This document shows, one piece after another, positions 33,389 through 53,300 of a stretch of DNA of 64,000 nt. This DNA comes from Cenococcum geophilum (Eukaryota): assembly GCA_050273025.1 (NCBI GenBank), contig CP158635.1, positions 1,674,001-1,738,000 of the forward strand, given 5' to 3'. Below the pieces are notes generated by a model, which was given only the letters and a program-made list of their open reading frames with translations, was not told the origin of the DNA and did no database searches. Position 1 is the first letter of the stretch, and each line of letters begins with the position of its first letter. Position numbers and translations under genes: made by a program.

Positions 33389-36300
33389 GAGTCTGGAGCT
33401 CGGCCTGTGTTGCCGAAAGCTCCGGGAGTACTGGCCAAGGCCCTAAAACCTCGGCTAGTGTAGATATTTTGGCTCCGGCCCAACTTCACTAGGTACACAA
33501 TCTAACTTTTACTACGCTATATTAAGACGCTATAATTTAATTGTTTTTTAATTTTAACGTTTTAAAGGTGGTTTTAATAATTTATTATGTTTCTATAATA
33601 GAAGAATAGCTTATAGATAAAGTAAGTTGTAGTAGGTTATATTTAGGTTATATTAAGGTTATATTAAGGTTATATTAAGGTTATATTAAGGATCTAATAT
33701 AGGTATAAATTCTAGAGAAGTAGAGGCAAATTAGAGTAGAAAAGGTATTTATTAATATTCTATTTATATTATTATTTAAATTTAATTAGACTATATTAGT
33801 TCCTACTAAATCCCTCTTAGCCCCTATAGAATAATAACGATAGTATAAGGTAATAGGCTCTATATTACCTAGACTACTATAAAAGGTAAGTAAGTAACTA
33901 GCTTAATGCTAAGTATAGCTATACAGAACAATATATATAGGTAAGGCGACTTCGTTACCTAACGGATAGCTCTATTATAAGCAGCGTAAGTATATATTTA
34001 GGTTATATCTATAATTTAATATAGAAATAGATACCGCCTAATAGCCTAAATATATAATTATATAATAAGGATCTAATTAGGATATAGAATAAGAACTTTC
34101 TCTAAAATAGGTATGTAAATCTTTTTATAAGGATAGTATAAGTATAAGATATAAATTATATTTTAGATAAAACTATATTATATCTATAATATAACCTTAA
34201 TATATTATTAATAAGGTTCTTTATAGCCCTATTTAAGGTCTAAATATTAGTATAATAGCTATACGTAGTACTTTAGAGTAACTTTTAGGTTATATCTTAA
34301 AGAACTTATTTCCTAGGATAATCTAAGCTCTTTAAACTTAGATAATAGTAGGAGTGAGGGTTCTAGTACTCCTAATACTACTTTATAGCTAAATACTATA
34401 ATAAGGCGCATTTCTAGCGCCCTAGCTCTATATACTAAGGTATAGTATATTAGGCTTAGTAAGCGCCTAATATAGGTACTATTCTTCTATATTAAGGTAA
34501 TATCTAGTATATATCTGGCTTATATCTAGGATCTAACTTTAATATAGTACTATAGTAAACATCACTTTATCTATATTCTGCTAGAGGATATTTTCTCTAA
34601 ATAGGATTATACTATTAGGAAGATTCTAGTTATAAGTGCTATATATCTCTATTTTATCCTAGATCTAACTATAATAAGATCTAAATACTAAATATAATAT
34701 TTATACTTAGGGAATAAAATTTACTAATAGTTATAGAGGATTAATTAAGTATATTAAATTATATTTCTAGGTAAAACCCTAAATATATCTATATTATAAC
34801 TAGCTTTTAACCTAAAAAATAAAGAAAAATATAGGCTATATAATTTATAGTATAAAGCCTAGAGGTTAAAAAGAACTATAATTTAGTAATTTAGCTAGTA
34901 TATTTATCTATATATCTATATTATATCCTAGATCTAACCTACTATAGTAGCTTAGTAAACCCTTTATAAAGCTATCTAGATAGAGGTAGAACTAAATATT
35001 ATATACCCTATTAGTAAGGCAGTTAAAAAGGCTAGAATTTATAATAATATAAACTATTACTCTTCTATTTAGAATATATTAATAATATATTAATAATCTA
35101 ATTAGAAATAGAACTTAATTTTACTAAATAGAACGCTATTAGATATTATAGATAACCTTAAGGGTAATAAGCCTTTTAATATAGTTAAGAGCTATACTAA
35201 GTATCTAGGATAGGTTAGATTTTAAATATAGTATAGTTCTATCTTAGTTCTATCCTAGTTCTATCCTAGTTTTATCCTTTACTACTAAGTATTAAGTATA
35301 GAGTATAGTAGGAGTATTTAAAATCGGCTTTTTCTTAAATATTATAATATCTTTATATTTAGGTAATTACCTTAATATAACCTATACTCCTTATACTTAT
35401 AAGTATAAAAACTTATATTAACTAAGTTTTTATTATAATTTTCTAAGCTCTAACTCTATCTTTTAATTTTATAGTTTAATTACTTTTACTTTAGCTTTTA
35501 TATATAGAACCTAGGCTTCTTATTTATAAATATTTAATTAAGATTATTATAATATTAACTATTATAAGAATTAAGCTTATTAAGTAATAGTTATATAAAG
35601 TAAAGACTATAAGCTACTCTTATATACTAAATATAATTGGCTTATAAGCTAGATATATTAAGGATATATCTAGATAATCTTACCTAATAGTAAAATAGAC
35701 CTAGAATATAGTAAAACCTAACTATTATTTAATATTATAATAGAGGAGACTAAAATATATTAGCTTTATAGAATTTAGTAAGATCTAAAATATAATATAC
35801 TAGAGTAAATAGAGGCTATAGATTATAAGTGAGATTTTAATTATACGCCTTATAAACTTTATAATTAAAACTATAGGTATATACTAGTTTTAGAAGATAA
35901 TATACCCAATATATCTAATATAATAGATATAATAATATAATAATATAATAATATATATATAATATTTATATATCCTTTTCTCGTCTTCCTCTATAATTTC
36001 CTTATAGTAAAAATTTTATAGCTAAGAGTATAAATATTTATAATAAAATACGCCTATATAGAGTATCTATTTTCTAAAGCACTTTAGAGGCTAAAAAGAG
36101 TATATATTATACTTATTTTATCCTTTAATATATATAAATATTATATCTATTAATATTAGAACTAAGTTATATATAAGATATATCTAGGATATATCTAGGA
36201 TATAGTCTTTTATATTTTTATATATCTTAGTAATATTCTTATTATATATCTCTAGATTAGATAAATCTATAATATATTTAATTCTATACTTAGAGGATAT

Positions 36301-37407
36301 AGAATATTCTAGTATCTTTTAACTAAATATAAGTCTTTTTATTACTAGAGATCTAGTTTATATAATTAATATTAAGCCTAGTTATATTATAGAATTCTAC
36401 TTATTACTAGCGTTAAAGAAAAGGCATTAGTAGATTATTATAGCTAGTATTTAGGATTATGTATTTTTTATAATACTCTTAATATAAGCTAGATATATCC
36501 TAGTTACTATCTTTAATATATATATATATATATATTCTTCTTATACTTATTACCCTTTATAAAAGAAGTACTCTTATAATTATTTAAAATCTTTAATTAA
36601 GAACTAAGTTGCTTTTATTAGTAGTAGTATAAAAGAACTATCTAAGATAGGTAAGTGCGTGGGGGTGCCTAGATTATATTCTAGATATATTACTAATATA
36701 TCCTAGGTTATATCCTAGATATATTCTAGATTATATTTTAGATTATATCCCAGGTTATATCCTAAATATATTCTTAATTATATCCTAGGTTATATCCTAA
36801 ATATATTTTTAATTATATTCTAGGTTATATCCTAGATATATTCTTAATTATATCCTAGGTTATATCCTAGATATATTCTTAATTATATTCTAGGTTATAT
36901 CCTAAATATATATCCTAAATATATTCTTAATTATATTCTAGGTTATATCCTAGATATATTCTTAATTATATCCCAGATTATATCCTAGATATATTCTTAA
37001 TTATATCTTAGGTTATATCCTAAATATATTCTTAATTATATCCTAAGTTATATCCTAAATATATTTTAGATTATATCCTAAGTTATATCCTAGATATATT
37101 CTTAATTATATCCTAGGTTATATCTTAGGTTATATTCTAGATATATCTTTACGCAATTTAAAGTAGTTATATATTATTAGTTATTTCTAATCTAGAGATT
37201 ATACAATCTTAAATATCCTAAAGATAGGATATAGTTATAATATTATATAATTAAGTATATAAATGGCGATAATTTTAAATAATTTTGTATTGAAACCTCA
37301 TTAAGTGTGCGCGCACGGTGTTAAAGTTCATCCAGTGTAAGATTTTGTAACGTGGCGTATTTCCACACTCCCGGAGCTTTCGGCAACACTGGCCGAGCTG
37401 TATGCTC
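33389..37407. mobile_element. Mutator-like (MULE) element, ~4.0 kb, with a heavily RIPed interior
   Basis: GAG...CTC termini. The imperfect ~41-bp TIR has a 33-bp core AGCTCGGCC(T/A)GTGTTGCCGAAAGCTCCGGGAGT with one mismatch. 9-bp TSD GGCTCTACA at 33380-33388 and 37408-37416. I did not recognise a transposase motif. Confidence 0.7.
36670..37145. repeat. AT-rich tandem array with 11-bp subunits in ~33-bp higher-order units (TTATATCCTAG...)
   Basis: Repeated TTATATCCTAGGTTATATCCTAGATATATTCTTAA-like units near the right end of the MULE. Confidence 0.85.
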
Positions 37408-41500: not shown

Positions 41501-42422
41501 CTAAAGAGGAACTATTAACTCCTAGGTAGAGACTATCACCGTTCTAAAATAATTAACCCCTATAACAACAGTAGTAACCTAGTAGAAAAAATGGAGATCT
41601 AAAGACCCGCCAATATTTAGCGGAAAAGGCACCCCGCTAGAATAATAATCTAATTTTAAGACCTAGCATATTAAGATTAAGGGAGTCTTTAACTAGGACT
41701 AGGACTACTTTAATATAGTTTAGTCCCAGATTCTTTATATCTTAGATATACTAAAGGATAAGGCCTATAAGTTTATTAAGTAGGGCTTAGAGCTTATATA
41801 TAAGAACCTAAATAACATATCTATATGGAAATGGCCTACTAAGGAAGATATGCTTAAAGACCTTACTACCTACTATAAGGTCCTTAATATAACCTAGGTC
41901 GCAAAGAATAAGCTTAACTATTTTCCTTAGGATAAGCGTAATTATTGGTCCTAAAAGAGAGAGCTTAATAAGCTAATAGTCCGCGCTAAGAAGATAGATA
42001 AACAAAGGGTGGACCTACTCTAAAAGGTTATCTCTCCGAAGATAAAAGAGCTAATACTTAGACTTGCCTATAAAATTAATAACAGCGATTATACAGGTTA
42101 GAGTAAGTAGATAGATATATTTACTAAGAACCTTATAAACTATACACACCAAGCTAACCTTAAGAAGAACGCCAACTACCGCCTACCTACTTAAGCCCCG
42201 GCCCCTATATTAACCCTAACCCTAGCAGTAACTGGAGAACCTATAAACCTTAATAAAATCTTAGACACGGAGTGTAAGCGCCGCGTTAATAATAGACTAT
42301 ACTTTACCTATAGCCTACCTAGCCACTAAAAGGATGCCTATAACCCCGCTAAGATAGTAAACCTAGTTCTAATACCACCCTATTAAATAACGCGAACTAA
42401 TAACCGCGGACGCGGCGACTAT

Positions 42423-45400
42423 TATTACGGACGCTTTAAGTACAATATTACGACTACTTAGAGAAGAGACGAAAGAAGCTAGTTGGTTAATCTAGGCACG
42501 GTCTAGGATAGAGCCAATAGAACTATATAACGAGGAATGGTAACCAAGGTCATATAATATGCTATATATTAAATAAGAGGAACGAGAGGAACTTACGTAC
42601 CTTATATATAAGACGTACATCACGTATAAGAAGGATTTCATAGGAGTACGGTTGTGTATTTAAGGACCCTTAGTCCCTACCTAGATAGTTCCTTCCTTAT
42701 AGTAATTCTTAGAATACAATTAGAGTTAATCTGTTAGGCAACTACTCCACCAGTTATTATTACGTTGTTGACTTTTATACTTACATTTCCTACACACCTA
42801 GCCCAATAATAAGCCTATTATAGTTCTTACTACAAGGTTCCGTTACACAATTACTACCTAGTTATAGTATTAATATAAAAAGTTAAACAACATGCCACTA
42901 AAAGCAGCTACTATAATGCTATTAACGGCAGCAACTACTTTAGGGACAGGAGGTAATACTAGTATAGTAGATACTAACTTATAGCAACCTGTGACGGTTA
43001 GACAGCTACAGGAAGTAGTCGACTAGCTAATAGCTAACAATATAGTGTTAGAAGAAAGACTTAATAGGATAAGAGTAGTAAAGATTAAGCTATTATTAAT
43101 TAAGAGATTTATAGAAGAGAGGTTAAAGCTTAAAGGATTCCTTACGCAGATGCACTTTAAGGTCTTATAAAAGGGAGCAAAGTTACCTACATTTATAGAT
43201 CGGATAGCCTACGCAGGACTATTCTTATTAGGAAAAGCACTTAAGTGGTTTAAACCTTACCTTATAGAGATATAGGCGAACGGAATAACAACTACTAACT
43301 AAGATGTGCAATTTATATTCTTAAGTTGGGAAGGATTCGCGGAACGACTTACGTAAATGTTTAGAAACCTAGAAGAAATAACTATAGCGGAAAGAAAACT
43401 CTAGAACCTTATGCAACAAACTTTAGTAATTAAGTATATAACACAGTTCCAAACACTAGCAATATAAGTAGAGTGGAATAATAAGGCGCTTATAGCATAG
43501 TATAAATAGGGACTTAAGGCTAAAGTCTAGGACGCAATTATTCTAATAGAAGATATAGATACCCTAAGGGAACTAATAGATTAGGCGATTAAGATTAACA
43601 ATTAGATCTACTAAAGGGAACAGGCTAAGAAGGGCTAAGATAGAGTTCTACAGTTATATAAGGCGCAGAGTACGCAATAACAAAAGCTAAGTCAGAAACC
43701 ATAGTATGGCGCAAAGCCAATAAACCTAAGTAGTACTAAAAAAGCCTATAAGAGATAGAGCAAACTATAGAAACCCAGGGGATAAGGATTAAGTAATTAA
43801 AGGTCTAAGGAGCAAAGGCCAAATTAGGGATTTTAACAGCAGAAGATATTCAGGCGGACTCTATAGTAAGAGAAATGGTTTAAAGAAGGAGCTTGCATAA
43901 ATTACGGAAAATAGGGTCATTACGTTAGAGACTGTAGAAGTAGGCAGAGTTACCATATAGTAAAAGGCATAAAACTAGCAGATAACATACACGTATAAAG
44001 GGACAACAATATACTATAAGGAACAAAAGAATATTTAATTAAAAGTTTTGCGTTTTGTTATAACAACGTATACCAAATTCATAAGGACGCTAAATACGGC
44101 GCAAGCTATTAGCTATAAGAGCCAGCACCTATAGGATACAGAAGAACTAACGAACTAGTTCGCAGATTGGATATTAAGGATAATAAGTTCAACCTAGGCG
44201 AAATATTTCGTAACAATAAGGCAATAAGGGCCGCTTACTAAGAGCAAGTAGACCTTAGAGATATTATACTAGAGGTAGAGGATAATTCCACTACAGAATA
44301 AGGAACATTAGTAGGGATTAAAACCCCACTAGACACAATGTCTATCGCTTCGCAAAACGTAAGAGAAATAGAATAGCAAACCACTTCGGCACTTAATAAA
44401 GGCAAAAGGCTAAAGGCTTAAGATTCTTAAGACGAGATAAGAGATAACTAAGATTCTTAAGACGAGATAAGGCATACCTAAGGACCTATAATAGACAAAA
44501 ACCAATAGAGCAGGGCAGTAGCTTAGTTTAAAAATATACGAATAAGCTTAGGACAGAGTTTCCTATAAGCATAAGATTCTCAAGATAAGATAAGTAAGAT
44601 TTAAGACTCTTAAAACAAGATAAGAACACTATAGACGCCTACTTAAACTAAAGCGGGAGCTAAGCTTAAGTTAGAAGCAAGCTTAGGATTAAAGAATCTA
44701 AGGGACCAAGATTTTAGAGTATAAATAAGGACACCTATAAACAAGAAGTAAGGAGCTTCTTTATAGATTAGAGAATCTGCAATATAAACAGCAGTTAGAC
44801 TAGGAGACAGATATATAAATCTAGGAGACTTACTAGGGGAACGCAGTGTTTAACCTAAAGATTAAAAGTTTAATACTAGGATTAAAAAGTAAGACGACTT
44901 TAAGGATTAGAGCGTAAGGCGCAAACCAAAAAAAACTATAGAAGAGTTTAGGCAAAGAATTATCGTATAGTAAGAACAGAAACTAGACAAAAGATCTAGC
45001 ATATTAGGACGTATAAAGGACAGAGCACTAGTATAAAAAATCACTAATAGGCCAAAAGCAGGCATACTAAGAGCTAAGTGGCTTACTAAACTAGAAAATA
45101 AAGAGGATCTAGGGATTTTAACTAAGTTTAAAGAACGATATATAAAGGGCTATTATAATACAGCAATAAGAAGATACTTCCTTACGGACAGACTGTATAT
45201 ACTCCAGCAGCTATACCAAAAGTAGTATAGGCAAAGGCATAACGATAAGTGGGAAGATTTCTATATGTGGTTAAATAAAAAAGTTATCTAAAACCACCCA
45301 ATTATAAAAAAGGCTATAACGCATATTAAAGGAGCCTTAATTATAACGTTAAAGGATCTAAAGGAACGTTTAGAGGACTAAAAAAGCAAAAGACGCATCT

Positions 45401-48400
45401 TAGTACCTGCGAATAAAGTTATAACGTTTAGATTAGTATAATAAAGGTTTAAACTTAGGAGCGAAAATAAGCTAAAAGTTAACCTAAAGCACCTAGCTCA
45501 CTACACGTTATTATAGATTACGTACATGGATAATATATACAAAATATATAAGAATCCAAAGGAAAAGAATCGGAAATACCCTATAAGGATATACTAGATA
45601 ACGGACAAGTAATAGTACAGGAATGCCAAATATATATATAGATAGCATCCAGCAGAGGTCCAAGAGGAAGGAAGTTTAGTACTTTAACTAGGAAGATTCC
45701 TTACAAAAAAATACTTAGAAGGACAACAGTAGTAGGAATGCCTAAAAAATATATATCTATAGCATATTAAAGATAAAAAGCGAACTAGGTATTAGCTAAA
45801 GAGCGAGCTAAGTATACCAGGATTAAGCAGCTAATAGTTAGGAAAAGTAGAGGCCTACGGGACCAAAGGGAGCTAATAGTAGAGCCTCAAACCCTTAAAG
45901 GAATTTAAGGACAATACCTAAATTTATAAGTTAATTAGTATAATTAGCAGTTTAAAGCGCTAATAGATAGTGGAGTAACGCGAAACTATATCTTACTAGC
46001 AGTAGTTAAGAGAATGGGACTACCTTATAAATAAAAGGAGTAACCTTACCCATTAGTTACAATTTTAGGAGATCCAATAAACTATAGAGGAGGGATTATT
46101 AATCTTGAAATAGGACCTATTTAGATAACTATTAAAGGGAGACAAATCGAGATATCTTTTAATATCCTACTATTAGGACGGGACGAGGCAGTATTAGGTA
46201 TATCTTAATTATAGGAATACAATCTAAGGATTAATTAGATTACAGGTCAAGTTAATATTAGAGATACTTAACGCCGCAAGATATAATAACAAGCTAAGAT
46301 AGTATAGTACTAAGTAGGAGCAACCTATAAAGAAACAGAAAAAGGACTAAGCTATATACCGAAAAGATACTATAAGTATAGCAAAAAACTATAGTCACCG
46401 GAAAGTAAAAAGCTGTTAAAGTATATAGTATAGGACTATAAAATAGAATTAGAACCAGGAACAAGTCTAAAGTTCTTTTTAATCTATAAGCTTACCGAAG
46501 AAAAAGGTAGAGCGTTAAAAGAGTTTATTTAGGAAAATCTACAAAAGGGATATATTAAACTATCGTAGTCATTAGCAGGTTATCCAGTACTATTTATACT
46601 AAAGAAAAATAGCAAACTAAGGCTATATATCGACTATAGACAGTTAAACAGCATTACTAGGAAGGATAGGTATCCTTTACCCTTAATTAGCGAAATCTAA
46701 GATAGGATAGGCAATACGCAAATCTTCACGAAGATAGATCTAAGATAGGTGTACTATTAGATTAGAATCAAGAAAGGCGATAAATAGAAGGCAGCTTTTA
46801 GGTTAAAGGAAGAACTATACAAACCATTAGTTATGCAATTTAGGCTTATAAACGCACTAGCAACGTTTTAGAAGCGTATTAACAATGTATTAAGAGAATA
46901 CTTAAATAAATTTGTTATAGTATATCTCAACGATATTATTATCTACTTAATAACTAAGGAAGAACATGGGGAACACGTTAAATAGGTCTTAAAGAGACTA
47001 TAAGAAGAATAGATGCTAGTAGCAATTAAGAAATACGAGTTCTTTACTAGGAAGACTGATTTTATTAGATTTATCATTAAACCAGGCCAACTCAGTATAG
47101 ATCTAAAGAAGATTAAGGCTATAGTAAATTGGTAGGAACTAGAGAACGTTATACAGTTAAAATCGTTTTTAGGGTTTTGCAATTACTACAGAAGGTTTAT
47201 AGCGCAGTAGTTAAAAAACATTAAGCCATTTACGCGGTTAATAAAGAAAGAAGAACCATAGGTATAGGAAGAGGAGCAAAGAGAACTTTTTAAGAAAGTT
47301 AAAGAGTTGTTTACCTAGGAGCCAGTTCTTAAGATCTATTAACTAGGACTAGAGACAGTTATAGAGATAGATGTATTAGACTATATACTAGGGGCGTGCT
47401 TTATATAAAGGTATTAAGATAGATAGTACCTAGTAGCATACTATAGTTAGAAGATAACACCACTAAAGTTAAACTATGACATCTACAACAAAGAGTTATT
47501 AGGTATAGTTGCAGTATTAAAGGAATAGAGAGCATTCTTATAAGGCATAGAGAAACCATTTATAGTTAAAACGGATTATAAGAACCTAATAGGATTCTTA
47601 ATAACGAAGGAACTTAACCAAAGATAGGTTAGATAGGTAGAGATGCTTACAGAATACCATTTTAAGATTTAGTATACTAAAGGTATAGATAACACGCGGG
47701 TAGATGCTCTAAGCCGTAAAGCTAAACTATAAAATAAGGAAAAGCCATTAGGGGCTTTACTATAAAAAGATATAGATAGATTAATTAGGTACAATTATCT
47801 AAAAATCGTAGCAACTTAAGAAGATAATAAACTAGAGAAAGTCTATAAGATACCAGAAAGCTTTTAGGCATAAAGAATTCTAAAAGCATAGCTAGAAGAT
47901 CTATAGACGGATATATACAAAAATTAAGAAGCGAAGTATATCCTAAGAAGCATAGCAGAGTAGTTCATGGAAGACTTCTATAAGGGACTAACTTAAGGAT
48001 ATAATGGAGCTATGGGCTTAGTGTTAAGACTCTAGGAGGAGTACATCGTTAACGGAATCTGGAGGATAACTAGAAAAGTTATAAAGGAATATTTAGATTG
48101 CTAAAGAAACAAACTGACAAGACATAAGCTATATAGAGGGCTATAACCTATCGAAATACTAGAGAGACCATAGGAGGTTATATTATGGGACTTTATTATT
48201 AAGTTGCCAAAATTAAAAGATCCTATTACTGAACAAGATTATAACGTAATCTTAGTAATAGTAGACAAGCTTATAAAGTAGGGATACTTTATAGCATATA
48301 TAGAAGAAATCTTAGCGGAAGATATCGCTAGAATCTATGTTAAAGAAGTGTTTATAAGATATAGAGCACTAAGCAAGATTATATTAGATAGGGATCCAAG

Positions 48401-50373
48401 ATTTATAGTAGCATTTTGGGAAGTATTCTTAGCGGAGTAAGGAGTTCGAGCAGTAACTTTCACCGTATATTATCTATAGACAGACGGTTAAATAGAAAGA
48501 TTAAACTAGACACTAGAACAGTATCTAAGGTATTATATTAATTATGTATAGAACAATTAGGTATTACTATTACTAATTACACAGTTTGCATATAATGCAA
48601 CACCTTAAGAAGGAATAGGCATATTACTATTTAAGGCAAATTATAGATATAAGCTAAAAATATTATTGTCACTATAGCAAGTAAAGAAAATAAGTAGTAC
48701 AGCTAAAGAAAGAATAAAGGATTTAATAAATCTTTATATAGACCTTAAAGAGATAGCTAAGGTAGTACAGTAGAGAATAAAAAGGTACTATAATGCTAAG
48801 AGATCTAAGGGACCAGATCTTAAGGAGGAAGATAAAGCGTGGCTACTACATAAAAATTTCAAGAGTTAACAACTAAGCAAGAAATTAGACTACGTCAGAC
48901 TAGGACCTTTCAAAATTATATAAAGGATTTCACCGGTTACGTTTAAGTTAAACCTACTAGCTAAAATAAAGATCTACCCTATATAGCATATCGCAATACT
49001 AAAACCAGCATATAGGAATATTAAGCCACCGGTCTATAAAGCAGACACATATAGAGGATAAGAAGAAGACAAATAGCAAGTTTTAAAGATCGTTAATTAT
49101 AAGGACATTGACGACGAAACATAGTACAAGGTTAAGTAGATAGGCTATATAGAGACTACCTAGGAGCCACTAGAGAATTTAAAAAACGCTATAAGAAAGG
49201 TATAAGAGTATTGGAAGAGATTAGGTTAGGCAGTATTAATAAAAAAGGATCGCTAAAGAACGAGTTACCTAAGGGGGACCTAAGAAGAGCAGTTGCCGAA
49301 CTACTTGGATCTATTTCCTTCTCTATTAGAGGAGAATCCGTTCTTTTATTACCTAGTTCCTATAAACCTTGTTTTATAAGTTTCCACTCCTTAAAATAAA
49401 CCTTCTTATAGACCTTTTTAAAACAAAGTAAATAAGTAGACGCCGTAATTTAAGTATCTAGGGCCTTCTATTCCGCGTCACGGGAACATTCCAACTTAGT
49501 AAGGGCTTACAATAGTTTACCATCTAGCCGCGTAGTAGTAGACTAAACACAAAACCTTAAGACAAATTAATTAGGGAACCAAATAACTATTAAGAGTAAT
49601 AGGTCGCGTATATTTAGCATCTAAAGTAGAACGAACGTTACAGAACGAACAAATATTCGCTTTAGTATACTTTAAGCAAGAGGACGGTTATCGCGAAGAT
49701 AGGTTTACCAACGCAACATAAACTAACCCCTCTTTCAAATAATAAGAATACGGAGACGGTATAATCTTACCAAGAGATAATATTACAGCAATAGTGCGAG
49801 CACGACGTTGGGCGTGTAAAGAAGAAATTGCTTTAGGTATAATAAGCAATAATATTAACCAAATTAATTAGACGGATATTATACCTCTAGTAAACAACTT
49901 AGAGATGTTTTAAATCTTTAAGGATAAAGATAAAAAGGAAAGAGATGGTGTTACGGACGCTTTAAGTACAATGTTATAACTACTTAGAGAAGAGACGGAA
50001 GAAGCTAGTTAGTTAATCCAGGTACGGTCTAGGATAGAGCCGATAGAACTATATAACGAGGAATAGTAACTAAGGTTATATAATGTGCTATATATTAAAC
50101 AAGAGGAACGAGAGGAACTTACGTACCTTATATATAAGACGTACATTACGTATAAGAAGGATTTTATAGGAGTACGGTTGTGTATTTAAGGACCCTTAGT
50201 CCCTACCTAGATAGTTCCTTCCTTATAGTAATTCTTAGAATATAATTGGAGTTAATCTGTTAGGCAACCACTCCACTAGTTATTATTACGTTGTTGACTT
50301 TTGTACTTACATTTCCTACACACCTAGCCTAATAACGAGCCCATCGTAGTTCTTGCTATAAGGTTCCGTTACA
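42423..50373 (+). mobile_element. Full-length Ty3/Gypsy chromovirus 'G' (7951 bp) nested in the gag of F
   Basis: 425-bp LTRs at 42423-42847 and 49949-50373, TSD ACTAT. Motifs: CCHC C.NCGK.GHY.RDC (~43894), protease LIDSGAT (~45960), RT YLDDI (~46923), RNase H (~47364), integrase TDGQTE (~48480), chromodomain YKVKW.GY..TWEP (~49070-49200). Confidence 0.95.
49240..49840 (-). pseudogene. Antisense ORF relic in the Gypsy G 3' region: Zn2Cys6-like motif plus coiled-coil, probably two exons
   Basis: From 49840 the minus strand reads IPKAISS...PSPYSYYLKEGLVYVALVNLSSR*PSSCLKYTKANICSFCNVRS. Reverting TAT to TGT gives C-x2-C-x6-C-x13-C-x2-C-x8-C; only two of the six Cys codons are intact. A putative intron spans ~49557-49611, followed by a helical L/A/E/K-rich exon. 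The 3' end is approximate. Confidence 0.55.
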
Positions 50374-53300
50374 ACTATAGAGTCTATTATAGACGCGGTA
50401 ACTATGGAGCCTATTATAGCCGCGGCAAATAACCCCCCCCCCTTTAACCCTACGGCTTAGTTACTCCAAACTATACCCTATATAGGAGCCTAACCCGTTA
50501 ATAATGCCTAGTATTAGTGACTTCGCGCTAGCGAATATAAACACGGCTACGTTGTTGGCGAGGTATTATCTTCCTATACCCCAACTAAAACCAAGACCGA
50601 CACCGCTAGCTAGACGGACACTGGACCGCCCTACTAAAACAGCCCTATACCCTAGTCGTTAAAAGGCAGACCCTTAGACTAAGTTATATCTAAGGGTCTA
50701 AACTATATAAGGAGGAAGACGAGAAGATTAGGTCCCTATTACTAAATTAATTAGTCCTTTCTATTAGTAAACTACCACTTAATTTTAGATTAGCAAATAG
50801 TAATAAGAAATTAATCCTTATTTAAACCCAACTCTCCTTATTATATAACCTATACCCCTAAGTTTATATTAATACAGTAAGCCTAGTAGACTCCGGTAGT
50901 ACTATAATAACATTTACTAATATAGAGTCTATTATAAGAAAGTATAACGTTATAACTAAGAAGCTACTAGCACCTAGGCCACTGTGCCTTACAGATAGTA
51001 TCCCAACTTCGCTTATTACAGACTACTTCACCGCCCGAATATTAATCGGCCTCTATACTAAAGCTATACTCTTTTTTATTACTAAACTCTCGCCTACTAC
51101 CCTAATTATCCTAGGTATGCCCTGGCTTTAGAAGCACGAACTCTGTCCTAGCTTTAGGAAACTTAAGATCCGCTTTAACTTAAACTACTACTCTAGGCAC
51201 TACCTCCCGTAGGGGATAACTGACATTAGTAGAGACGCCCTACGTAAATACTTAGTACTACTAAGCCTAGTGCCTAGGACTATATATAAAGCCCTAATAG
51301 TAGAAGATGTTCCTAATAAAGGGGAGCCTATATAGCTGCAAAGAAACGAGACAGTAGAAGACTGGACTACCCTAGTACTTAAGACTAAAATAATAGGCTA
51401 GCCAGCTCCGCTAAGACTAAGGAAGAAGGTCCGCTTTATACTACTACTATTAAAAATCTAACCCTAACCTAGGTACTATTTAAACCCTAGCCGCCTAGCC
51501 TAATACCCGGAACTAAGCTATATACTATATACATATACTATAGCTCGCGTTATAGTAAGGACTAGCTATAGAACTACTAAGACCTAGATAATAGAAACTA
51601 CGCCACCGTAACGCCTAACCTTATACCTATCTCCTGCGCGTACTATATAGGGCCGCCGCCTTATTTCCGCCCCCCTAGGCCGACTAAGCTGTACTAGCCT
51701 AGCCATAGCACCGGAGAACTAGACACGCCCTAACCTAGACAATATTAAATGCACTTATACTATTAATTTTACCCAGTTCTATAAATAAAAAGACGTAAAG
51801 GTAATAAGGATCTATATAGCGGAGCTGGTAAAACTAGTTAAATAAGATAAGCACTAATAGCTACTTAAAGAGCTGCCTATAGGCCTAATAGAAGTACTAA
51901 ACCTATTAGAAAGGTCTTTCTGCTGGCTAGTAGAAGGCAATTATACGATAAAGGAAGCCTATAAAGTACTCCCCCCCTATTTCTATAACTTTCTTAAGAT
52001 AAATCTAAAAACTAAACCCAAGCTTTTACGTCGGAAGATAGTTAATATTAATGTTAAAAAATTCCTAAAAAGCAAACCAGGATTAACCCATAAAGACATT
52101 CTATAACACCTACTAAAGGAGTTTAGTAAATATATTAAGCACTTCCTCCTTAAGAACGTAGATAAGCTGCCCCTTTACTAACCATAGGACCATAAAATTA
52201 AGATTACCCTTAGAAACTAGGCTTTATACTATAAAAATAGACCACTCTTACCTACTAAACTTAGGTGTATAAAGAAGTGGATTAATAAAATGCTAAATAA
52301 GGGTTTTATCCGCGAATTAACCTTACTAGTTACTATACCACTCCTCCTCACTACTAAGCCTAGCGGCGGTATACGAATTTACTATAACTACCAAGGCCTA
52401 AATATAGTCACTATTAAAAATTAATACCTACTGCCACTAATCCGCAAGATACTTGACGCACTTTATAGTACTAAGTACTTTACTAAACTTAATATAATTA
52501 CTATATTTAACCGGATCTAGATTGCGGAGGGCTATAAGTAGCTTACAGTATTTATTACCCAGTTCGGACTCTATAAGATACTAATTATACTATTTGGCCT
52601 TTATAACGCACCTGCTACGTTCTAAAACTATATTAACTATATTTTATACAACGCCCTTAATAACTACTGCACTGCCTACCTTAATAATATCCTTATCTTT
52701 TCTAAAATACGCGCCGAGCACACTAAGTATATAAATGAAATTATTTAAAGACTTAGCAATACTAGACTTTAGATTAATATTAATAAGTCTAAGTTCTACT
52801 CTACTAAAATAAAATACCTTAGCTTAATTATCTTGATTAATAGCATAACTATAGACCTTAAGAAGGTATAGGCCTTATAGAAATAGAAGAACCTAATATT
52901 AATTAAAGAACTATAACAATTTCTTGGCTTCGCGAACTTCTACTAACGATTTATCTAAGGCTATTTTACTATCGCTACACCTATAACAAAACTCCTAAAG
53001 AAGGATATTAGATGGCTATAGGGACTAGAATAAGCCAAATTGTTTAAGGCCCTTAAGGGAGCCTTTACTTTAGTACTAGTACTAGTATACTATAACTATA
53101 TAAAGAAAATAGTAGTAGAGATAGATGTATTAAATTAGGCTTTTAGTGGAGTCCTTTCCCAGTATAACAATAACGGAAAATTAAGACTGGTTGCATTCTT
53201 CTCTATAAAGCACTCTACGCTAGAGTATAACTATAAGATCTATAATAAAGAACTCTTAGCTATTATTAAGGCTTTAGAGGAATAGCGTCCTAAGCTATAA

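Follow-up and report, generated by a model that had tools for sequence, protein, structure and literature searches.

Does a retrotransposon that has been destroyed by repeat-induced point mutation (RIP) still record a third gene on the strand opposite gag-pol? The DNA analysed here, hereafter the window, is the whole of a stretch of 64,000 nucleotides (nt) of contig CP158635.1 from Cenococcum geophilum; it is AT-rich with strong RIP indices and contains a Ty3/Gypsy element, probably of the chromovirus type, which is complete but dead and heavily RIP-mutated. Between the end of pol and the 3' long terminal repeat (LTR), on the strand opposite gag-pol, lies a frame that an earlier reading of the bare sequence (the original prediction) had attributed to a genuine gene of the element. 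The columns of aligned copies, database open reading frames (ORFs) and the pattern of transversions speak for this attribution, and we consider it very probable that the element carries a real, spliced gene for a protein with six cysteines and a helix, dead in the window. This would be the third gene of its Ty3/Gypsy family, antisense and RIP-killed in the window, with two exons at 49840-49612 and 49556-49189 and one 55-nt GT..AG intron; its start codon would lie ~80 nt inward of the polypurine tract, and the final codons would overlap the end of pol tail to tail.

Six ancestral cysteines in exon 1

The original prediction rested on a minus-strand frame in which TAT codons, read as former cysteine codons, fall at the spacing C-x2-C-x6-C-x13-C-x2-C-x8-C with two cysteines intact. 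These codons are indeed present at 49750-49640 (six-Cys cluster, 49640..49750, minus strand) in the frame from 49840: 49750-48 TAT, 49741-39 TAT, 49720-18 TAT, 49678-76 TGC, 49669-67 TAT and 49642-40 TGT. The window therefore reads Y-x2-Y-x6-Y-x13-C-x2-Y-x8-C, with Tyr at four of the six positions. Taken from the single window copy alone, such a C/Y pattern is weak evidence: the six frames of the window together hold 10 matches to the [YC] pattern at the same spacing and 9 to its form with the textbook loop of 5-12 residues (antisense-gene site excluded), and Tyr makes up 7.1% of all six-frame codons.

Copies of the element were collected by scanning a metagenome collection with a 56-position pattern taken from inside the antisense gene. 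The pattern was written in purines and pyrimidines because RIP makes only transitions, with plain A/T used at sites unlikely to be RIP products. The scan returned 120 metagenome loci, of which 79 matched at least 900 nt of window positions 48900-50400; together with the window they form an alignment of 80 rows, the 41 loci with too little flank being omitted. All 79 are colinear with the window over 48900-50400, and so is a diverged copy at locus L028; as the copies were fetched by a pattern inside the region, copies lacking the region could not appear. All aligned copies are RIP-mutated (G+C 0.24-0.35), the window copy being the least mutated over this stretch, and the spread in G+C was too small for ranking the copies to help. 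Exon 1 is free of insertions and deletions in 74 of the 80 rows, and exon 2 in 41.

Since RIP turns TGY into TAY and never the reverse, a surviving C letter in such a column marks an ancestral cysteine. The unmutated middle letter of TGY was found in 14 of 80 rows at 49749, 40 at 49740, 2 at 49719, 10 at 49677, 48 at 49668 and 15 at 49641, so that the reading of the TAT codons as former cysteines is borne out by 2-48 rows at the four Tyr positions. The count of 2 at 49719 is at the noise level of the alignment, in which 52 columns show a minor letter just twice; Cys is nonetheless present at this position in 11 of 117 database ORFs of other subfamilies. As a control, CGC (Arg) was recovered for the Tyr codon at 49744-42 and CGT (Arg) for the extra Cys of the window at 49651-49; the de-RIP method therefore does not simply turn Tyr into Cys. 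Among 120 listed database ORFs, 117 hold solely Cys or Tyr at the six positions, with Cys in 53, 52, 11, 10, 82 and 30 of the 117, respectively. This restricted alternation is, as far as the compared sequences go, what RIP leaves of ancestral TGY codons. The start codon, ATA in the window, is kept as ATG at 49840-38 in 4 of 80 rows. On these column counts the six cysteines and the start are ancestral, as the check proposed with the original prediction (alignment of copies and de-RIP) had asked, and together with the profile matches described below they delimit exon 1 at 49612..49840 on the minus strand (76 codons plus 1 nt).

A probable 55-nt intron between the two exons

The frames of the two exons are offset by +1, and the same offset is found in the diverged L028 copy. 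Removal of 49611-49557 (intron, 49557..49611, minus strand) joins ..AAG T to GG TCT.. and gives ..K-W-S-R-V.. Judged by column counts and by the P0295 junction, this 55-nt stretch would ancestrally have read GTACGC...TTAG; it reads AT...AA in the window, where G>A changes account for the start ATA as well as for the donor AT and the acceptor AA, as had been supposed. The acceptor G is kept in 67 of the 80 rows, and the donor G is visible as a Cys codon in 12 of 117 ORFs of other subfamilies. This 'seventh Cys' (12/117 ORFs) was rejected as part of the cluster: its codon is split by the donor and lies outside the spliced protein.

The exact junction is given by P0295, an ORF of 139 aa that shows no RIP damage, comes from a contig of 911 nt and clusters with database hit P0012. 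P0295 starts ..SDAKWSRVQ.., that is exon 1 joined to exon 2 minus 49611-49557, and its local alignment to the spliced read-through scores 402, gap-free over the junction and on to the stop. At the level of sequence comparison, this ORF, which crosses precisely the ~55-bp gap that had been proposed to be spliced out, is decisive support for the 55-nt intron. An intron at this place could persist in a retroelement because the genomic RNA, the template of reverse transcription, holds it in antisense orientation.

The CTAAT that had been taken for a branch-like site did not stand: it is a RIP product of ..CTGGT.., and the codon concerned, the stop that follows ..LVP in the exon-1 frame, is TAA in 69, TAG in 9, TGA in 1 and TGG in 1 of the 80 rows, the ancestral codon being TGG. 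Upstream of the acceptor, at a distance of 14 nt, there is a TTGAT. In place of the stop with which exon 2 opens, P0179, P0230 and P0295 have Arg or Gln. Two other splicing schemes were tried and rejected: an intron of 61 or 64 nt ending ..CTAG, of which the acceptor is not conserved in L028, and a donor GTAAGC directly after TG, which is not conserved either and would delete conserved helix codons.

As an observation of its own, the first ~26 nt of exon 2 (GGGTCYCGTGTTTAATCTRCTGCT, window 49530-49556 on the minus strand and ~1040-1070 of L028) are nearly identical between subfamilies that are otherwise ~60% alike, a conservation above that of the surrounding coding sequence. The stretch sits where the open exon-1 frame overlaps the exon-2 frame and might serve in splicing, code for protein in both frames or act in cis in the sense RNA.

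Exon 2 and the coding signal

Exon 2 extends over 49189..49556 on the minus strand, as delimited by the copy alignment and P0295, and ends with the stop TAG at 49191-49189. The second, helix-like frame claimed by the original prediction was recovered within it (49556-49192), and its long helix or coiled-coil part is placed at 49351..49545 (minus strand) by AlphaFold2 (AF2) modelling of P0179, by the homodimer prediction and by the transversions.

To look for codon-level conservation, the family consensus was compared with the diverged L028 copy, the sole diverged DNA in these tests, and transversions were counted at codon positions 1/2/3. Only transversions were counted because RIP cannot produce them. 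Codons 1-107 of the exon-1 frame gave 13/10/23 (p=0.014), and the helix part of exon 2 gave 7/2/18, with 18 of 27 at the third position (p=0.0004). The codon-level conservation that had been named as a check is thus seen, for this one pair of sequences, in both the exon-1 frame and the coil.

The window copy itself bears lesions throughout: besides the start, the four Cys to Tyr changes and both splice sites, it is interrupted by a single stop in exon 1 and by five stops in exon 2, and it carries a 21-nt in-frame deletion between 49452 and 49453 (site 49452..49453, minus strand). The 21 letters are present in 65 of 80 rows, so the deletion is private to a minority of copies that includes the window. 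The window gene is a fossil without present function.

Relatives in sequence databases

Three profiles were used to search for relatives. A1, built from 74 exon-1 translations, matched 411 proteins among 1,023 candidates, and A2, the exon-2 profile built from 42 rows, matched 27 proteins among 2,956 candidates. A3, built from the 37 least damaged exon-1 ORFs, matched, out of 1.84 billion, 239 cluster representatives (50% clustering) at E<=1e-3, of which 154 also passed E<=1e-10. The matching ORFs are all unnamed and of metagenome-type sources, and most are RIP-damaged; they form several subfamilies whose N-termini differ. These matches indicate conservation at the protein level across subfamilies of the element. 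In the ESM Atlas, P0179 and P0295 pointed only to unnamed Ascomycota clusters (0.85 for P0179 and 0.94 for P0295), which are leads and not evidence.

One group of relatives, among them P0152, P0090, P0261 and P0253, has a different conserved text after the sixth Cys (..S.H...GNTW...ALLA.L..). It replaces the intron-frame and helix readings and may be a frame variant or reflect another exon structure.

Predicted architecture of the antisense protein

The spliced read-through product would have ~205 aa, with a predicted layout of a short basic N-terminal segment, the six Cys, a linker of ~12 residues, a helix of at least 60 residues and a disordered tail. AF2 run on P0179 with 103 aligned sequences predicted a helix at residues 47-109 with a predicted local distance difference test score (pLDDT) above 90. 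For two copies of P0295 residues 1-90, the homodimer prediction scored 0.38, the best of three controls reaching 0.01. The homodimer mark is reached by 21 of 30 proteins solved as one-chain pairs and by none of the 23 solved as single chains; for eukaryotes it is reached by 1 of 7 proteins without an older solved relative. At least 97% of the contacts agreed between the homodimer runs, with a partner pLDDT of at least 82, and the model pairs the two chains in antiparallel fashion (residue 41 with 41 and 20 with 59, for instance). On this modelling, the helix probably pairs with a second copy.

The textbook Gal4-type cluster has the form CX2CX6CX5-12CX2CX6-8C and is followed by a coil that is parallel. 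The antisense protein resembles this Zn(II)2Cys6 type (PF00172) in the spacing of its six Cys, five intervals of which fit, in the linker and long helix that follow, and in its organism group, Ascomycota. It differs in its 13-residue loop (the database scan for the cluster allowed 12-14 residues), in the absence, by eye, of a basic run between Cys2 and Cys3, in its sub-threshold Pfam match to a half-domain on the wrong half, in its predicted antiparallel pairing, and in its size of ~205 aa with no further domain. Of the proposed Gal4-like cluster with a dimerisation coil, the six Cys and the long helix stand, a pairing of two copies is predicted, and the predicted direction of the pairing does not fit. 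The sequence thus resembles Gal4 in architecture, and Pfam does not place it in the Zn_clus family. The cysteines are inferred to bind zinc.

Weighing the proposed gene against other explanations

A number of results weigh against the gene as proposed. None of the 80 aligned rows holds an intact gene; each of the 41 metagenome copies with an indel-free exon 2 has at least four stops there, and none of the 42 rows of A2 shows a sense codon in place of the exon-2 stop after ..ADA, a position at which P0295 and P0179 stay open. The donor G is found in 0 of 80 rows, its support coming from other subfamilies and from P0295, and P0295 itself fits a spliced mRNA on a contig that may be RNA or DNA. 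The 110-aa ORF P0179 runs from the Cys cluster into the helix with one extra codon at the joint (..ECTFHVRS.. vs ..KWSRVQS..), a joint without explanation in the GT..AG model. In many subfamilies the exon-1 frame is open through the intron and beyond (107 codons here), and an unspliced product is possible from the sequence. The codon-position test uses a single diverged copy, and the pol control region had too few transversions (2/4/5) for calibration. In RNA run X21 (~12% of the run), depth was 0 over 49332-49697 and no splice joint was seen. On the side of structure, AF2 gave the Cys region a pLDDT of 52-68 (below 50 in an earlier model), Foldseek of the AF2 model found no match in the PDB, and a sequence-profile search of the PDB gave chance matches only (E 1.7), with no solved relative. 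Membership in the Zn2Cys6/Gal4 family, as originally claimed, was not upheld: Zn_clus (PF00172) matched 5 of 28 natural ORFs over half the domain, at 9.4-14.5 bits where the cut-off is 21, and reached the threshold neither in these ORFs nor in the window frames. The half-domain matches align Cys1-3 to the second half of the model; none was found in P0240 or P0208, which keep 6/6 Cys, nor in the three minus frames of the window. The Pfam test is handicapped because all queries carry RIP damage.

As a separate observation, the joint of P0179 could stem from alternative splicing, from another layout in its subfamily or from a deletion in the genome.

The alternative that survives best, and which we judge improbable, is that the gene is real and unspliced. 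It would consist of a 107-codon frame that opens at the same ATG, crosses the 'intron' and closes with the TAA at 49519-49517, and the helix frame would be untranslated or made otherwise, such as by a +1 frameshift. Once de-RIPed, the exon-1 frame has no stop over these 107 codons and ends in TAA in 80 of 80 rows; many ORFs of other subfamilies cross the same stretch with a conserved ..LVP.LI..RVL.LI.., and diverged subfamilies hardly differ in the first 26 nt of exon 2. The name 'brtn-106', given to a variant of the Boty elements discussed below (PMC4227169), may also, at a guess, stand for an unspliced product of this size. The helix frame, which has no ATG of its own, yet gives the strongest coding signal (7/2/18), speaks against an unspliced gene, as do P0295 and P0179, which pass from the Cys part to the helix part with the intervening stretch absent, and the 21 exon-1-frame codons past the intron start, which show no third-position excess (2/3/1). 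Spliced and unspliced forms could coexist via intron retention.

It is less probable still that constraint on the sense strand, through a long C-terminal extension of pol or a cis-acting part of the genomic RNA near the polypurine tract, has kept the antisense frames open as a side effect. Such constraint would find some footing in the composition of the de-RIPed region (~53% G+C, several long frames on both strands), in one pol-strand frame that shares the third-position phase and has synonymous counts of 12 vs 12 to 15, and in the last third of the antisense ORF, which overlaps pol and has no antisense coding signal (9/15/7). The replacements speak against it: the antisense frames are the best of six, with synonymous to non-synonymous counts of 15:14 (BLOSUM sum -4) and 12:11 (sum +4), whereas the best pol-strand frame, in the same third-position phase, has 12:24 (sum -26) and 12:13 (sum -15). 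The pol frame moreover has stops at 49254, 49281, 49377, 49392 and 49419, with sense variants in 1-2 of 80 rows at 49254/49281 and no RIP precursors for the later stops. Finally, six cysteines alternate across subfamilies solely with their RIP product, and the exact removal of 55 nt that restores the antisense frame has no meaning on the sense strand.

Chance, by which Tyr-rich RIP-mutated DNA yields C/Y patterns such as the 10 loose matches counted above and stops are easily called RIP lesions (the real pol frame itself carries stops, and out-of-frame read-through has 241 stops in 2367 codons, so that stop density cannot tell frames apart), is refuted for practical purposes by the copy alignment, the database ORFs, the codon-position tests and the P0295 junction.

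The Gypsy element and its surroundings

The element that carries the proposed spliced gene was delimited by its LTRs and by Pfam scans of the RIP-mutated window translations, with stop codons read as X. The 5' LTR (42423..42847, plus strand) and the 3' LTR (49949..50373, plus strand) are direct repeats of which 423 nt can be aligned (42425-42847 vs 49951-50373) at 93.4% identity; their bounds were extended by the two letters TG, RIP-mutated to TA at 42423. All 28 differences between them are transitions, mostly in CpA/TpG context (CpA to TpA or TpG to TpA). A target-site duplication, ACTAT, flanks the element on the left (42418..42422) and, in 5 identical letters, on the right (50374..50378). 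A purine run adjoining the 3' LTR (49920..49948, plus strand) is the polypurine tract. The RIP indices of the element are 1.6-1.9 for TpA/ApT and 0.35-0.57 for (CpA+TpG)/(ApC+GpT).

The gag gene is recognised by a Retrotrans_gag match (PF03732, E 4.5e-6) at 43219..43518 on the plus strand (frame 42850+3n). The pol gene, at 45942..49256 on the plus strand (frame 42849+3n), comprises protease, reverse transcriptase (RT), RNase H, the C-terminal SH3 of the integrase and a chromodomain-like end, with E-values of 1.5e-4 for gag-asp_proteas, 1.5e-18 for RVT_1, 3.2e-18 for RT_RNaseH_2 and 2.7e-7 for SH3_Tf2-1. The domain order is gag, then protease - RT - RNase H - SH3_Tf2-1. In the pol read-through, Pfam found no match for the rve integrase core and none for Chromo at E<=10; the chromodomain-like motif was seen by eye at ~49050-49230, by comparison with the chromodomain consensus. 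The stop of pol may be at 49254, 49281 or 49377, the choice being uncertain from column counts and aligned copies. Pol and the antisense gene overlap tail to tail over at least 49192..49256, where neither frame has a codon-position signal.

No second copy of the element was found within the 64-kb window. In run X1, 39,807 contig pieces belong to the family, which marks it as highly repeated. In contigs of three DNA runs, summed depth over 49393-49819 is 5-10x below that of the pol end and the LTR, from which the region would be missing from many copies or subfamilies, or diverged beyond the 80% likeness cut-off. Locus L028 holds at ~100-1900 a second, diverged Gypsy 3' end (the 'MPPIR' subfamily) beside a copy of the main family.

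Elsewhere in the window, positions 34000-37000 have ~20% G+C, far below other RIP-mutated repeats, and contain several chance matches to the Tyr pattern. From 60655 onward, on the plus strand and in a G+C-rich part of the window, the scan for the Cys pattern met a short tandem repeat that encodes CPA repeats (C-P-A-C-P-A...), maybe inside a host gene.

Precedents and significance

The closest precedent in layout is brtn, reported as an antisense gene between pol and the 3' LTR of the Boty-like Gypsy elements of Botrytis and Sclerotinia (Zhao et al. 2011, Virology 417:248, as cited in PMC7264820, PMC4227169, PMC8365987 and PMC5987419). The brtn elements are likewise of the fungal chromovirus-type Gypsy kind and carry an extra antisense gene in this place; brtn and the window gene are likened here by position and orientation. 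On the side of the window family, all genome-family copies seen are RIP-killed. The plant LTR retrotransposons Grande1, RIRE2, Retand and PvRetro13 also contain antisense ORFs between pol and the 3' LTR, placed and oriented alike, which most copies in a family carry and which are suspected to be regulatory (PMC7264820). These belong to other lineages and are likened by layout, and the consulted parts of the source report no zinc-cluster-like architecture for them (PMC7264820).

A literature search over listings and passages found no paper linking a zinc cluster to an antisense gene of a retrotransposon. HBZ of human T-cell leukaemia virus type 1 (HTLV-1) is a dimerising DNA-binding factor encoded antisense, spliced and transcribed from the 3' LTR. 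The window gene would share with HBZ the layout of an antisense accessory gene at the 3' end, with an intron, a DNA-binding-type module and a pairing helix; unlike it, HBZ is a basic leucine zipper protein of a human retrovirus and not a Cys cluster, so that the comparison is one of analogy only.

By its build, the product may be a dimeric nucleic-acid-binding regulator that the element makes for its own use. Such a regulatory function is possible by analogy, and we hold it with reserve. We regard as somewhat unlikely the wider proposal that a clade of ascomycete Gypsy elements encodes its own zinc-cluster dimeric DNA-binding factor, made from a spliced antisense mRNA that starts in or near the 3' LTR.

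LTR retrotransposons carry extra genes that are seldom annotated, and a function has been assigned to hardly any of them. The antisense gene described here is widespread, with 239 diverged cluster representatives, its product is built like a small dimeric DNA-binding factor, and it would keep an intron in a retroelement, which is possible for an antisense gene only. Aligning the RIP-mutated copies of a repeat can recover genes that single-copy annotation and Pfam miss, and with intact copies the function of this one would be directly testable, with a 200-aa protein and the LTR as its candidate target. If the wider proposal is true, the factor would act on its own LTR or on host chromatin, as a transcription switch, in steering integration or in blunting genome defence; its Cys6 module would be a source of, or a capture from, the fungal Gal4-type family, and the gene would be the fungal counterpart of the retroviral HBZ arrangement.

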